Assembly: GCA_033856735.1 (NCBI GenBank)
Contig: JAWVEM010000025.1
Span: forward strand, 972 to 64,971
DNA length: 64,000 nucleotides
Reading direction: 5' to 3'
Origin: Blastocatellia bacterium
GTDB lineage: Bacteria; Acidobacteriota; Blastocatellia; Pyrinomonadales; Pyrinomonadaceae
In this document: one piece after another, positions 6,309 to 41,982 of the stretch
Position numbering within the stretch: position 1 is the stretch's first letter
Layout: each line of letters starts with the position of its first letter
Translations under genes and position numbers: made by a program
Notes under the pieces: generated by a model
What the model was told of the DNA's origin: nothing
Databases searched by the model: none
The model's input: the letters and a program-made list of their open reading frames with translations, nothing else

Positions 6309-6385
6309 CGGGGCGTGGCTCAGCCTGGTAGAGCGCTCGGTTCGGGACCGAGAGGTCGGAGGTTCGAATCCTCTCGCCCCGACCA
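6309..6385 (+). tRNA. tRNA-Pro (anticodon CGG), with encoded CCA
   Basis: Hand-folded cloverleaf. Acceptor stem CGGGGCG/CGCCCCG, D arm GCTC/GAGC, anticodon stem CTCGG/CCGAG with loop TTCGGGA, T arm GGAGG-TTCGAAT-CCTCT, discriminator A, then CCA. Confidence 0.9.
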
Positions 6386-6388
6386 ATA
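6341..6388 (+). repeat. attL: 48-bp direct repeat (3' part of tRNA-Pro plus 3 nt)
   Basis: TTCGGGACCGAGAGGTCGGAGGTTCGAATCCTCTCGCCCCGACCAATA is identical to 41935-41982. Confidence 0.9.
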
Positions 6389-6395
6389 GAATCAA

Positions 6396-7487
6396 TTACT
6401 TACGGCTGTCGTCATCGACAGCCGTTTTTTCGTTTGTGTCCAATTTGTGGACATTTTTCACAAAGCCTACTTGTTTGGTGAGTCGAACCGCGCGAATATA
6501 CCGTTCAGTAGTGGTCATGTCGCGGTGTCCCATAATCGTCTTGATGGTGAACGCATCGTAGCCGGCCATTGCCATCCGAGTGCAAAAGGTGGCTCTGAGA
6601 TCGTGCCATTCGAGATCGCGTATTTCCGCTAGTTGGCACGCTGTTGCGAACGCTGTCTTGATGTCAACGTAGGGCTTTTTCGTAGTCGGATTTACGAACA
6701 AATACTCGTCCGCTTTTTTCTTTGCGCAGAGTTTGCCGAGGATTGGTTTTACCCTTTCGTCCAAGACGTCCATTGGTATTTCTCGGTTCCGCTTGCCCTT
6801 TGTTTTGCTGGCGACTACCACACCGCGGACAAAGTCCACCTGGTCGCGTCGTAAATTCAGCTGCTCACGCTTCCTTAGACCTAAACCCAATGCGATGATC
6901 ACCATGTCATAGAGGTGTCGCCTTTTGCCGACTAAGGTGGACATCAGGGTCGTTTCCTCCTCCGGATCGAGAACGCGATAACGCTGATTGTCCAGCTTGA
7001 ACTTTTCTACGTGCGAACATGGATTGCGGTCGGCTTTGCCGAGCGAGATCGCTAGGGTGTATATGCGAGACAGCATCTCGAACTCCCGGTTAACCGATGC
7101 TGGCGCTCGCTCGCTGTCGTGTTTTGTGTTGGTTGCCAACCTTTTCGTTTTGAACCGTTCAATTTCGAGAGGCTGGACTTCCCGTAGTTGCCTGTTGCCG
7201 AAAAACTTTTTCAGAACGACTTTGCCGTACTCGTCGTTTTTCCACGACTTCTTGTTGGACTTGGCCCAGGGCATGTAGATGTCGTCAATGAAGTCATCGA
7301 CTTTCATTGTGCCGGTTTCTAGCATGCCAAAGGTTCCTTGATAGACGTCCTGCTTCAGTTTGTGTTCGGCTTGCTCAGCTTGCCTTTTGGTCCGAGCCTC
7401 AGGAATTGCTCCGCGGTAACGCACGCCACGCACTCTGAAGTAATAATGCCAGTGATTGCCTTTCGTACCCCTTTTGTAAACAGACAT
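6396..7487 (-). CDS. Tyrosine-type site-specific recombinase/integrase
   Basis: Catalytic-type motifs LGLGLRKRE, WHDLRATF (HxxR) and GHRDMTTTERY (His and Tyr). It lies directly inside attL. Confidence 0.9.
   Translation of the reverse strand: MSVYKRGTKGNHWHYYFRVRGVRYRGAIPEARTKRQAEQAEHKLKQDVYQGTFGMLETGTMKVDDFIDDIYMPWAKSNKKSWKNDEYGKVVLKKFFGNRQLREVQPLEIERFKTKRLATNTKHDSERAPASVNREFEMLSRIYTLAISLGKADRNPCSHVEKFKLDNQRYRVLDPEEETTLMSTLVGKRRHLYDMVIIALGLGLRKREQLNLRRDQVDFVRGVVVASKTKGKRNREIPMDVLDERVKPILGKLCAKKKADEYLFVNPTTKKPYVDIKTAFATACQLAEIRDLEWHDLRATFCTRMAMAGYDAFTIKTIMGHRDMTTTERYIRAVRLTKQVGFVKNVHKLDTNEKTAVDDDSRK
6402..6431 (+). terminator. Hairpin plus T-run just downstream of the reconstituted tRNA-Pro
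   Basis: ACGGCTGTCG-TCAT-CGACAGCCGT is a perfect 10-bp stem followed by TTTTTTCG. It overlaps the last codons of the minus-strand integrase. Confidence 0.6.
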
Positions 7488-7944
7488 TTTGTGCTCCTCG
7501 AAGTTGCAGCCACCAAGAAAACAGGCGCATGGTAGCTCTAAGGAAAATCGAGCATCTTTGTCATTCTCACCGCCGTTATTTCTACGCAGGTCTATTCAAC
7601 AATTGAGTCAATGTAAAATTGCAGTGTCGAATCCAAAGGTTACTTCGCGTTTGACATCGAGGCCACGATTTTCATCACGAACCGACAATCTTCGGATGTC
7701 AGCGCTTTCGATCGTTTACTCGCAGCATTACGGCATTATGAAGCGTTCAACAGATCGCGAGAGATCGCGAAACGGGCATGTTCCCGGCGGATACGATCCG
7801 CAAAGAGTGAAGCGTTCGCTTTGTGCTAACTGAAAATTCGGATTGGCGGGAGCAAGAATGTATTGCGCGGCGGCAGCGATTTCCATATTCTATGCAGGCC
7901 TGACGGATTCAGATGTTCACTAACGCTAGAGGTTCTTTCGGTTA

Positions 7945-39519: not shown

Positions 39520-40034
39520 GAGTAGGCATAACCGGTCATCAGAAACTTGAGAGCCCCGCCAACTGGGAGTGGGTCCGCAGCGAACTGGACCGGTTTCTTT
39601 CTAGTCTTCCTCAACCTCTGATCGGAATTTCTTCACTTGCCGTTGGAGCCGACCAACTGTTTGCAACAGCGATTTTAGCGCAAGACGGAGCGCTTGAGAT
39701 CGTTGTTCCTTTCGAAGGATACGAGTCGACCTTCTCTGAGGGCGATGATAGACAAGCGTATCTTAATTTGCTTTATCGCGCGTCAAAGGTGGACGTGCTG
39801 AAGCGACACGGAACGGATGAGGAAGCTTACTTTGCGGCTGGAAAGACATTGGTTGACCGATCTGAACGGATCGTTGCTGTATGGGATGGTAAGCCAGCGG
39901 GGGGGCTGGGTGGCACAGGAGACGTAGTTGCTTATGCGCTTGAGCGCACCAAGCCAGTTGTGAATATCAATCCGGTTACGAAGAGAGTACTGAGCGTATG
40001 CAGTCCTCCGATTCTTCCACGAACGCAAAGATAG
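39516..40034 (+). CDS. Standalone SLOG-superfamily (LOG/YpsA/DprA-like) putative nucleotide-ligand-binding protein
   Basis: MRVGITGHQ..., SLAVGADQLFA and VWDGKPAGGLGGTGDVV Rossmannoid Gly-rich motifs. The ATG overlaps the caspase stop (ATGA). Confidence 0.6.
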   Translation: MRVGITGHQKLESPANWEWVRSELDRFLSSLPQPLIGISSLAVGADQLFATAILAQDGALEIVVPFEGYESTFSEGDDRQAYLNLLYRASKVDVLKRHGTDEEAYFAAGKTLVDRSERIVAVWDGKPAGGLGGTGDVVAYALERTKPVVNINPVTKRVLSVCSPPILPRTQR

Positions 40035-41569
40035 AAGCGGTCCTCCGTTTTATCGCGGTTGCGTGGTGCGCCATCTTTATTTTCACTCCGAGTATCTGGT
40101 ACATCATCCTCGTGGCCAGACTGATTCACCCGTCGTTGATCAGCGATGACCCAGGCATAGCACTTGGCAAGGAGGTTCCTTTTCTGGTCCTTGTGGTTGG
40201 AATTGAACTCTTCTATGGCGTCGCGTTCGCACGTTTCCTGCTTCGGCTCATACCGTCTGAACCTTCCAAAGGCGATCGAGGTCGGCATAGCCTAAGGTTA
40301 CTGCTGCTCGGGGGCTCCCTGAGTCCTCTAGTTTTGTTGTTTTTACTCCTTATCCCGTCAGCGAAAATTGCTCTCGCGATCTCTGCGACCTTGTGGCTTG
40401 CATTTGTCCTGGCATCGCTGTTATCTGCGAATAGAAAACTTAAAAGATTGTCACCCGATCGCTTCGTTCTTTTTCTAAGGCGATTCTCAACTTTTTCGGA
40501 GCGGGCAATATTCGGTCTCGTGCTTTCGTCGGTTCCGCGGGACAGACCGCTCATCTTCCTAACCCCCAACCAAAGCCGCCCCAGTGATTGGAACCCATTC
40601 TTGATTAGTTTTGCAGGTCTCAAGCTTGCGCGACCCCTTAGTAATCTCCCCGTAGTATTGCGGGCGCCAGACGCTGACTGGGAGAGACCCGCGAAGTCGT
40701 TGATCGACGATGCACACCGAATCGTGCTTGATATTTCCGCAGGCAGCGCAGCAATCCAAACAGAGATGATGATGATACAGCACGCATCACGATGGCATGA
40801 CACAATCTGCGTGAAAGACCGATCAACTGCCGGCAATCCTGCATTGGATGACTTCATTCTTGCGAAGGATGGGTGGCTGGTTGCATACAAGAAAAATTGG
40901 AGCCAGGTTTTACCGAGATTATTCCTGTTCATATTGTTCTCGGTGATAAGCCTATTTTGGTTGGCTTCGATTGTAACCGAGAGGTCCCATCCTTCTTCCG
41001 AATTTGAAAAGCTACTCGCGACGTTCACGGCCGTTATTTTGTGGGCCGTACCGTTCCTTTCAGGTCTTGGCTTGCTCGTCTATTCGACGTTTATCTACCC
41101 TTCAATAACTGTCTCTGCCAAGCCAGCGATTCGAAGAGCCCTTCGCGGCGTACCTTCAGATGAAAGATTAATCCGCAGCTTTGGGCAGCACCATCAGGAA
41201 TTCGAACGGCTGATCAAGATGTCCCTTGAAGATCTTACTAACGAAGCAGCAACCTCCCTCCGCGTAATCACAGCGGAACCTACTTCAAATAAAGAACAGC
41301 TGATGCTTTCCTCCGAACGGCGCGATCAATATGGAGAGTTATTTAAGTCATTGCGATTAGGTCACGGCATGCGACTTCACTCCACGGATTTCATACTCCT
41401 CGCTTGTCAGAACAATATTGTCGGACGAAGCGGATGCGAGAAAGGGTATGTCTATACAACAAGTCCACTCAAGCCTCTTTACAACTCACTGGACATTCAA
41501 TCAGCTAGAGGAAGATATCTTTATAGGGAACTCAAGCCGAACTGGTACCTTTATCTGTTCGAGAAATGA
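39998..41569 (+). CDS. Polytopic membrane protein, unknown function (candidate effector)
   Basis: 523 aa with several hydrophobic helices at both ends flanking a soluble middle region. It overlaps the SLOG gene by 37 nt. Confidence 0.55.
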   Translation: MQSSDSSTNAKIEAVLRFIAVAWCAIFIFTPSIWYIILVARLIHPSLISDDPGIALGKEVPFLVLVVGIELFYGVAFARFLLRLIPSEPSKGDRGRHSLRLLLLGGSLSPLVLLFLLLIPSAKIALAISATLWLAFVLASLLSANRKLKRLSPDRFVLFLRRFSTFSERAIFGLVLSSVPRDRPLIFLTPNQSRPSDWNPFLISFAGLKLARPLSNLPVVLRAPDADWERPAKSLIDDAHRIVLDISAGSAAIQTEMMMIQHASRWHDTICVKDRSTAGNPALDDFILAKDGWLVAYKKNWSQVLPRLFLFILFSVISLFWLASIVTERSHPSSEFEKLLATFTAVILWAVPFLSGLGLLVYSTFIYPSITVSAKPAIRRALRGVPSDERLIRSFGQHHQEFERLIKMSLEDLTNEAATSLRVITAEPTSNKEQLMLSSERRDQYGELFKSLRLGHGMRLHSTDFILLACQNNIVGRSGCEKGYVYTTSPLKPLYNSLDIQSARGRYLYRELKPNWYLYLFEK

Positions 41570-41934
41570 CTCTTTTAGCCACTTGCTTTTGGTTAGACGG
41601 CACATCGTCATCCACCGCTGCCAACGAACCCCCGCGTCATCCTGAACACGCTTGATCATTCTTGACATGGCAGGGGTCACGGGGTCAGGTCCCGACGCTA
41701 CTGCCAAGCGTTGATCGATGGGCAACCGCTCGCTATTTGCGAACGAGGACTGTTCGAGGACATTATTCGAGAGAGCCCTTACCGAAAGACCGTTGTGTCC
41801 AATTTGTGTCCGGGCTGGACGGTACGCGGCGGGTCGAGATGTCATAGGACGGTAAAGAACGGTAGAAGTGGTGATTTCCTCGGTGGCTGCAACTTTCGAA
41901 AATGCAAAGACTTACGTTTTTGCATGGCCCAAGA

Positions 41935-41982
41935 TTCGGGACCGAGAGGTCGGAGGTTCGAATCCTCTCGCCCCGACCAATA
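41935..41982 (+). repeat. attR: 48-bp direct repeat (3' fragment of tRNA-Pro only)
   Basis: Identical to 6341-6388. The upstream sequence does not provide the tRNA 5' half. Confidence 0.9.

Follow-up and report, generated by a model that had tools for sequence, protein, structure and literature searches.

A cargo-bearing island in the tRNA-Pro(CGG) gene of a Blastocatellia bacterium, most likely a non-autonomous derivative of a conjugative or mobilizable element-like lineage

Attachment (att) cores that span the anticodon loop to the 3′ end of a tRNA gene were reportedly catalogued by Williams in 2002, and to our knowledge almost no mobile elements have been characterised in Acidobacteriota. 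The window analysed here, by which we mean the whole stretch of 64,000 nucleotides (nt) at positions 972 to 64,971 of contig JAWVEM010000025.1 (assembly GCA_033856735.1), comes from a soil-dwelling Blastocatellia bacterium and holds, in its tRNA-Pro(CGG) gene, an integrated element whose cargo recalls several described bacterial systems. Bacterial ISG15-like (Bil) operons encode a ubiquitin-like protein (Ubl), an E2, a JAB and an E1, as set out in PMC11601603 (with Chambers 2024 and Hor 2024 cited there). Type I Bub (6E.1/DUF6527) operons all encode a BubAB fusion, which is cleaved by BubCD (PMC11601596), and type IV Thoeris joins a short TIR, which makes N7-cADPR, to a caspase-like protease that this signal activates, and is proven antiphage (bioRxiv 10.1101/2024.10.24.620036). 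Ubl-plus-caspase systems with FtsH/vWA-MoxR components, unlike the gene set reported below, were described in the eLife 2020 paper on conflict systems (PMC7159879).

With good confidence we assign positions 6389–41934 and two 48-nt repeat cores to a 35.5-kb tRNA-integrated island, most likely a non-autonomous derivative of a lineage resembling integrative and conjugative elements (ICEs) or integrative mobilizable elements (IMEs). The features at its two outer borders are:

6309–6385, + strand: intact tRNA-Pro(CGG) gene (ARAGORN), which owes its 3′ part, position 33 onward, to the att core brought by the island
6341–6388, + strand: attL core, a 48-nt direct repeat from the anticodon loop to 3 nt beyond the CCA end
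6402–6425, + strand: island-borne intrinsic terminator, a strong hairpin directly after the rebuilt tRNA, overlapping the 3′ end of the integrase gene (int) on the opposite strand
41935–41982, + strand: attR core, the second 48-nt copy and a remnant of the tRNA 3′ half
41996–42019, + strand: native terminator of the tRNA gene, now cut off from the tRNA by the island

ARAGORN finds this tRNA gene, preceded on its 5′ side by a sigma-70-like promoter at 6265–6293, as the only one in the window. According to the repeat search the two cores are identical at 48 of 48 positions, lie in direct orientation and constitute the sole long-range repeat in the 64 kb; they start two bases 5′ of the anticodon (tRNA position 33) and end 3 nt past the encoded CCA, which bears out the perfect 48-bp repeats that a preceding reading of the letters without database searches (the sequence-only reading) had placed in tRNA-Pro(CGG). 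The 32-nt core occurs exactly twice in the window at up to 3 mismatches (0 in 100 shuffles), and internal degenerate copies, which would be a sign of tandem elements, are absent from the window at the same tolerance. The bases flanking the two copies are unlike (G versus A on the 5′ side, G versus A on the 3′ side), so the repeat is not part of a larger segmental duplication, the origin which that reading had set against its own. The second copy has no tRNA 5′ half and receives no tRNA call from ARAGORN, and is thus the att remnant it was taken for, and no second tRNA.

Just inside attL, a tyrosine integrase is indeed encoded where one had been noticed. The integration module and the putative arm sequences comprise the following features:

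6396–7487, − strand: full-length tyrosine integrase of 363 amino acids (aa), PF00589 at E=3e-24
6434–6449, + strand: left copy of the 16-nt motif TTGTGTCCAATTTGTG, within the int 3′ coding end and 46 nt inside attL, a candidate arm-type Int site
about 7557–7640, − strand: remnant of a decayed excisionase gene (xis; HTH_17 Xis), with a ...FD...NNGGENDK tail and two in-frame stops
7945–8271, + strand: XRE-family helix-turn-helix (HTH) regulator, PF01381 at E=9e-11 and matching PHROG repressor families
41793–41808, + strand: right copy of the 16-nt motif, 127 nt inside attR
41794–41934, + strand: conserved non-coding right arm of the element, about 140 bp, aligning with the attR-proximal arm of a different island at locus L085

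The integrase stop codon lies 7 nt from the attL core, and on reading the sequence all catalytic residues (R..K..HxxR..H..Y) are present. The protein is full length relative to its 272 homologues at E≤1e-30, of which those that carry organism names belong to Pyrinomonadaceae or other Acidobacteriota; searching metagenome contigs returned 2 short loci only, and IMG/VR viral contigs contain no relatives. In sibling elements xis sits directly upstream of int and is intact in loci L005, L002, L089 and L090. The 16-nt motif is found in exactly 2 copies in the window, in direct orientation (0.03 expected), and its left copy recurs at the same offset with 0–3 mismatches in seven sibling elements; the two copies may be arm-type integrase sites. 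The last ~70 bp of the right arm also align with the arm of the island at locus L007.

That the element was inserted follows from comparison with relatives. The genes outside the repeats, claimed to be housekeeping genes, are conserved chromosomal ones: surE, pcm and dedA/uptA on the left and, on the right, thpR (RNA 2′,3′-cyclic phosphodiesterase), an acylase gene and further chromosomal genes. Searching GTDB species genomes with the DedA protein yielded 80 loci, all from metagenome-assembled genomes (MAGs) of Blastocatellia/Pyrinomonadaceae or other Acidobacteriota. The closest relative found, Blastocatellia MAG BP_39 (L001), has an uninterrupted surE-pcm-dedA-tRNAPro-thpR-acylase order, that is, an empty site, in which the native terminator directly follows the 3′ end of the tRNA; its flank proteins are 96–99% identical to those of the window, except ThpR. 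When 6389–41982 is removed from the window in silico, the alignment with L001 runs straight across the junction at 88% nucleotide identity, and in L009, L018, L020, L038 and L075, too, the tRNA and thpR are no more than about 150 bp apart. The predicted restored attB junction reads GGTAGAGCGCTCGG + 48-nt core + AAGTTCAAACATCAGCGG, and the predicted attP junction of the element TTTTTGCATGGCCCAAGA + 48-nt core + GAATCAATTACTTACGGCTG. ThpR itself (42042–42815), whose gene adjoins attB, is just 72% identical to its L001 orthologue, against 90–99% for the other flank proteins; local divergence is raised beside the site.

Composition shifts too: against an island GC content of 51.6%, the right flank has 56.8% and the left 53.4%, mean GC at third codon positions is 0.546 for island genes versus 0.639 for flank genes (Mann-Whitney p=3e-6), and the tetranucleotide distance changes at the right border, the left flank being the less distinct of the two. 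The contrary picture drawn up in the sequence-only reading, with the same content in all relatives, no empty site and no compositional shift, is therefore not what the relatives present. Both junctions recur at 100% identity in JGI contig Ga0467063_0000288 of sample 3300044898, which corresponds to the window from 4828 to about 42339, and the island interior is matched by a Logan contig from SRR24887494. This Logan contig, of 35,606 nt, was considered as an excised circle and rejected: its length equals the unique island plus 2 × 30 nt and its readable (integrase) end stops 30 nt into the repeat, which is just what a k=31 assembly graph yields at a 48-nt repeat, so it is uninformative on excision. 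The tyrosine integrase, the repeats, the empty sites and the composition are together those of a tRNA-integrated genomic island, and with related integrases at the same attB the claim of a site-specific integrative island in tRNA-Pro(CGG) stands.

These related integrases adjoin tRNA-Pro(CGG) and dedA in L005 (JAWVDF010000006.1; 80% identical), L002 (JAWVEB010000042.1; 63%), L037 (77%), L089 (81%) and L091 (76%). A further one in L090 is 77% identical and part of the same int-xis module, on a 41.7-kb Logan contig that ends before the tRNA. In L005, L002 and L090, int is followed by a 69–74-aa HTH_17 excisionase, a TrwC relaxase-helicase and a TrwB/TraD-type coupling protein; the presence of xis, a TrwC (MOBF) relaxase and a coupling protein beside int makes these elements ICE/IME-like. 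L006 and L069 have integrase fragments only at the site. As can be seen, one attB in Acidobacteriota is found empty, with ICE/IME-like elements, with integrase remnants, and with cargo-only islands sharing arms.

Two of the latter deserve description in their own right. At the same tRNA-Pro site, L007 holds between two att copies (10694–20412) a 9.6-kb island without an integrase, whose cargo consists of a Ser/Thr kinase-TPR protein, an extracytoplasmic function (ECF) sigma factor and a 2016-aa Calx-beta/PD40 protein. L085 (JGI Ga0467064_0000151, 1–5400) stems from a near-conspecific strain in a sister sample, with flanks 96% identical at the nucleotide level; it has the attR core of the window and the ~140-bp arm next to cargo unrelated to that of the window, namely a 2659-aa RHS/Tricorn/PD40 giant protein and several unknown genes.

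DNA similarity between the window and the sibling elements ends at 7536. Neither the sibling TrwC nor the sibling coupling protein finds a match in the window by tblastn, and outside int there is no non-coding similarity to the siblings at blastn E≤1e-5. By Pfam, and by these tblastn searches, the window has no relaxase, coupling protein or type IV secretion genes, which sets it apart from an ICE; as to an IME, no relaxase and no non-coding similarity to the ICE-like siblings were found, though the window may carry an unrelated origin of transfer. In place of the capsid, terminase, portal, tail or satellite hijacking genes of a prophage or phage satellite, Pfam and PHROGs give only regulator, helicase and protease matches. 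No phage structural or conjugation genes had been seen before, and none emerged from Pfam, PHROGs or tblastn of the window. The label "pure defence island" that went with this observation holds in so far as the cargo is of conflict type; its antiphage effect is presumed, and within its ICE/IME-like lineage the element appears as a transfer-defective one whose excisionase gene has decayed.

The route to the present structure was most likely as follows. The tyrosine integrase would have inserted the element through recombination of attP with attB in the 3′ part of tRNA-Pro(CGG), with strand exchange somewhere between the anticodon loop and just past the tRNA 3′ end. The element's own copy of this tRNA stretch, with its own terminator, would keep the tRNA whole at attL, with the host's own 3′ half and the native terminator pushed aside to form attR. 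The element belongs to a Pyrinomonadaceae/Blastocatellia lineage with this same attB, its complete members carrying int, xis, a MOBF (TrwC) relaxase and a coupling protein. In the window copy xis, the gene for the directionality factor, is decayed and the transfer genes are absent, about 33 kb of conflict-type cargo being carried instead, and the island is most likely now a fixed carrier of this cargo, recently acquired and no longer self-mobile. Perfect repeats, an intact integrase and strain-level cargo differences point to recent events. The repeat, the integrase, the empty sites, the sharing of the site by related integrases, the xis remnant and the lack of transfer genes are observed; that the ancestor was ICE/IME-like and lost genes, that mobility is gone and that the cargo acts in defence is what we infer from them.

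Most of the cargo genes are predicted to act in defence or cell suicide. The left half consists of a module A, a Bub operon and a module C:

8764–10002, − strand: module A, DUF2130 protein (Pfam)
10005–13502, − strand: module A, M78 peptidase-UvrD/REP helicase of 1165 aa (Pfam)
13456–14019, − strand: module A, 187-aa protein of no known family
14021–14692, − strand: module A, 223-aa protein of no known family
14846–15211, + strand: BubA (Ubl), Pfam Multi_ubiq, ending ...TEG-stop
15215–15613, + strand: BubB (E2), Pfam Prok-E2_E, a separate open reading frame 3 nt after BubA
15616–16998, + strand: BubCD, a JAB-E1 fusion, Pfam Prok-JAB and ThiF
16998–17363, + strand: BubE, DUF6527/PF20137 at E=1.6e-20, so named in the precomputed Pfam annotation
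18073–21955, + strand: module C, a 1109-aa HEAT-repeat protein and its small partner of 201 aa, which matches PDC-M35B weakly

BubCD of the window matches Citrobacter BubCD (PDB 9ea4) at E=1e-94 over residues 5–460. The helicase at 10005–13502 has GajB-like matches, with no GajA. Within the DUF2130 gene a 120-nt tandem duplication (9654–9893, 91% identical) doubles a coiled-coil segment of the protein. The two genes at 13456–14692 are divergent from the Bub operon and lie where CapH/CapP, CapW or CapK/CapS regulators usually sit. They were considered as CapK/CapS, of which CapS structures are reported solved (PMC13373217), and rejected: they give no Pfam match above noise and no PDB match, and their orientation is wrong.

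The right half is dominated by a conserved gene cluster:

22279–23753, − strand: a 301-aa unknown protein and a 188-aa ECF-sigma-like protein, both encoded after CHAT in its direction of transcription
23832–40034, both strands: conserved 16-kb cluster of about 12 genes (Pfam, PADLOC)
23832–27410, − strand: TPR-CHAT, divergent
27604–28020, − strand: Ubl paralogue of 138 aa, adjoining CHAT
28915–32487, + strand: large TIR protein, 1190 aa
32550–32918, + strand: 122-aa protein
32908–34176, + strand: E1, ThiF at E=4e-29
34173–34484, + strand: Ubl of 103 aa, from its predicted fold
34544–35269, + strand: E2 of 241 aa, from its predicted fold
35294–36448, + strand: JAB, at E=9e-9
36710–38089, + strand: DUF4407 protein
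38105–38491, + strand: short ThsB-like TIR of 128 aa, ThsB_TIR at E=5e-10
38512–39519, + strand: C14 caspase of 335 aa with an extra C-terminal region, Peptidase_C14 at E=7.5e-19
39492–40034, + strand: SLOG-like protein of 180 aa, from a sub-threshold match
39998–41569, + strand: 523-aa unknown protein that overlaps the cluster end and is without a counterpart in the homologous clusters

Overlaps of 4–37 nt between the E1 and Ubl genes, the caspase and SLOG-like genes, and the SLOG-like and 523-aa genes suggest co-translation. The 241-aa protein belongs to an E2 family that has no Pfam model; its predicted UBC fold (predicted local distance difference test, pLDDT, 84) retrieves E2 enzymes or E2-containing complexes in all 50 Foldseek matches listed, and His116 and Cys124 are invariant. 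The 103-aa protein has a predicted ubiquitin-like beta-grasp fold (pLDDT 79), in which an invariant Gly-Ala precedes a disordered tail that varies, and it has a paralogue (E=1e-18) in the 138-aa protein that adjoins CHAT. This E2 family is rare: a search with the 241-aa protein gave just 36 clusters among 5.8 billion proteins, and a profile search 202 representatives among 1.84 billion. What looked like several systems is one conserved block: around three of the four homologues looked up (L094, L096 and L101) the gene set is colinear with that of the window, which makes at least four genomes, in the shared order divergent TPR-CHAT, a small gene, a TIR protein of ~1190 aa, a small gene, E1, the ~100-aa protein, the 241-aa protein and JAB, then a 63–73-aa gene (called in L094 and L101), DUF4407, the C14 caspase and a SLOG-like protein of ~170 aa. 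Direct protein comparison was made for L094 and L096, and gene order compared for L101: amino-acid identity to the window is 47–85% in L094 and mostly 52–62% in L096, where the 122-aa protein reaches 37%. Of these clusters only those of the window and L094 include the short ThsB-like TIR; L096 and L101 keep the caspase without it. No published description of the 16-kb gene set was found in literature that was covered in part, which makes this a weak sign of novelty, and a literature search for DUF4407 returned unrelated papers only.

The most divergent E2 homologue found, in L103 (JGI Ga0376075_0005356, 1472–4823), is part of a bare Ubl-E2-JAB-E1 operon adjoining Dam, Replic_Relax and N6_N4 methyltransferase genes, from which neighbours this operon is probably on a plasmid or other mobile element.

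Set against this inventory, most of the cargo counts of the sequence-only reading survive. The three Ubls (Multi_ubiq and two paralogous beta-grasp proteins), two E1s, two E2s and two JABs are all accounted for, the second E2 being identified by structure prediction alone. CHAT and the C14 caspase remain of three claimed caspase-fold proteases, and two TIR domains of three TIR or TIR-like ones; of the helicase-nuclease, the UvrD-type helicase is confirmed and the nuclease domain is not. SLOG and one sigma-like factor are retained on sub-threshold matches, the 188-aa protein matching Sigma70_r4_2 at E=1.4e-4 (below the Pfam cutoff) and a PHROG sigma factor at E=8e-5, and the second sigma-like factor is not confirmed. 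Pfam at E≤5 on the ten otherwise unassigned proteins, PADLOC and a PDB sequence search give no third caspase, third TIR or second sigma factor, and comparing every island protein by phmmer with the caspase, CHAT, TIR and sigma domains of the island adds no caspase, TIR or sigma either. PADLOC recognises no complete known system in the island.

Several observations weigh against our reading of the element as an island derived from an ICE/IME-like lineage. Every empty site belongs to another species or strain, the nearest at 88% nucleotide identity, and none to the same clone. The left-flank GC content is barely above that of the island, and the left motif copy lies within int, so that coding constraint may explain its conservation. 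The attP junction (last 16 nt + 48 N + first 17 nt) gives 0 matches in metagenome contigs. The sibling comparison covers the int-side ends, and descent of the whole element from an ICE, as against a shared int module, is what we infer. It is possible, though we think it rather improbable, that the island is still mobile, as an integrative mobilizable "defence cassette" excised by Int, either unaided or helped by Xis that a sibling ICE in the same cell provides in trans, and moved by the machinery of that ICE. The intact integrase and perfect repeats would suit this, as would the fact that the clade has ICE/IME-like siblings, at the same attB, which possess xis, a relaxase and a coupling protein, and the near-conspecific strain with other cargo between the same arms, which suggests recent turnover; yet the window has no xis, relaxase or recognisable origin of transfer, shows no non-coding similarity to the siblings outside int (blastn E≤1e-5) and leaves no attP junction in assembled metagenome contigs, and two elements at one attB would be tandem, of which no internal att copy gives a sign. 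A degraded prophage or phage satellite, to which tRNA integration, an integrase by attL and an XRE repressor-like HTH protein might also point, is very improbable, since Pfam and PHROGs detect no capsid, terminase, portal, tail, primase or packaging family, IMG/VR viral contigs contain no integrase relative, and the closest integrases adjoin relaxase and coupling-protein genes. We give still less credence to an assembly chimera or segmental duplication producing a false repeat: the source is a MAG and tRNA-sequence repeats are classic misassembly points, but both junctions are 100% identical in Ga0467063_0000288, homology ends exactly at 48 nt, and the integrase geometry and the arms conserved with L085 and L007 fit a real att site.

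What the cargo of this transfer-defective island does is a separate matter. Our tentative proposal, well short of an even chance, is that 23832–40034 encodes one undescribed multi-gene immune or cell-death system, and no mere row of separate defence systems, in which a cysteine-dependent Ubl/E1/E2/JAB cascade of Bil-like content, built on the rare E2 family, is genetically coupled to TIR, DUF4407, caspase, SLOG-like and TPR-CHAT proteins; if so, the TIR and protease effectors would be permitted to act, or held back, by conjugation of the Ubl. A little less probable in our view is that the cargo serves programmed cell death, kin conflict or a stress response of socially living bacteria, in which case "defence island" would be a misnomer. 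Bub operons gave no protection against any phage tested (PMC11601596; PMC13373217), combinations of CHAT, caspase, TIR and Ubl have been described as apoptosis-like conflict systems (PMC7159879), PADLOC offers no complete known system, and the cargo of sibling islands at this site comprises a kinase, an ECF sigma factor and giant surface/RHS-type proteins in place of defence genes. Against such a role, a short TIR beside a caspase is the gene pair of antiphage type IV Thoeris (bioRxiv 10.1101/2024.10.24.620036), Bil-type Ubl systems are proven antiphage in work cited by the Bub and Bil literature, and carriage by a mobile element is typical of defence genes.

The island itself is of a textbook type and unsurprising; its cargo cluster is rare and apparently undescribed. 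It is a clear-cut instance, with well-defined borders, of an integration hotspot in Acidobacteriota, and the series of occupants shows how the integration module of a conjugative element can become a fixed carrier of conflict genes. The exact attB, attL and attR sequences with the integrase are a possible genetic tool for Blastocatellia, and the rare cluster ties ubiquitin-like conjugation to TIR/caspase-family effectors, the domain set of animal innate immunity and cell death.

Further afield in the window, the right flank has intergenic GC-rich repeats, a 32-nt direct pair at 49369–49400/55388–55419 and a 35-nt inverted repeat at 51179–51283, which share the motif GGCGGACT and look like repetitive extragenic palindromic (REP) sequences. 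The radical-SAM protein at 1528–3624 finds its best NCBIfam match in Tes, the archaeal tetraether lipid synthase, at an E of 3e-95 that falls short of the curated cutoff, and may on this similarity be relevant to membrane-spanning lipids in Acidobacteriota.

Compared with the described systems, the Bub operon shares with Type I Bub a full-length BubCD homologue, a Prok-E2_E protein, a Multi_ubiq Ubl, BubE and the gene order, whereas its BubA and BubB are unfused and BubA already ends in Gly; it is thus Type I Bub in three of four defining features, the fusion being the departure, and may represent a natural split-gene variant whose Ubl would need no processing. Like Bil, the genes at 32908–36448 encode Ubl, E2, JAB and E1 activities, but in the order E1-Ubl-E2-JAB and embedded in a 16-kb TIR/DUF4407/caspase/CHAT cluster, the Bil gene order Ubl-E2-JAB-E1 being that of L103, the most distant member of the E2 family. 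No bacterial Bil chain is among the PDB sequence matches of the window E1, E2 or E2 profile, and for neither enzyme of the window did a bacterial E1 or E2 of solved structure give a significant sequence match. The pairing of type IV Thoeris is echoed by the 128-aa ThsB-like TIR, followed 20 nt on by the 335-aa C14 caspase; unlike a self-contained two-gene operon, this pair lies inside a 12-gene cluster, two of the three homologous clusters (L096 and L101) keep the caspase without the short TIR, and no solved type IV Thoeris caspase is among the PDB matches of the window caspase.

As for the element, it resembles its siblings L005, L002 and L090 in an integrase 63–80% identical to theirs and in the 16-nt motif near attL, with use of the tRNA-Pro(CGG) site seen directly in L005 and L002 as in the window, and differs from them in having no intact xis, relaxase or coupling protein and no similarity beyond 7536. 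Relative to tRNA-integrated islands and ICEs with tyrosine integrases at large, the window element stands apart through its host, an uncultivated member of Blastocatellia (Acidobacteriota), and through its stripped-down state, with a decayed excisionase and no transfer or replication genes. It agrees with them in that int abuts the tRNA, that the repeat is the 3′ part of a tRNA which is rebuilt on insertion, that relatives have empty sites, that the GC content is below that of the host, and that variable cargo lies between conserved ends.

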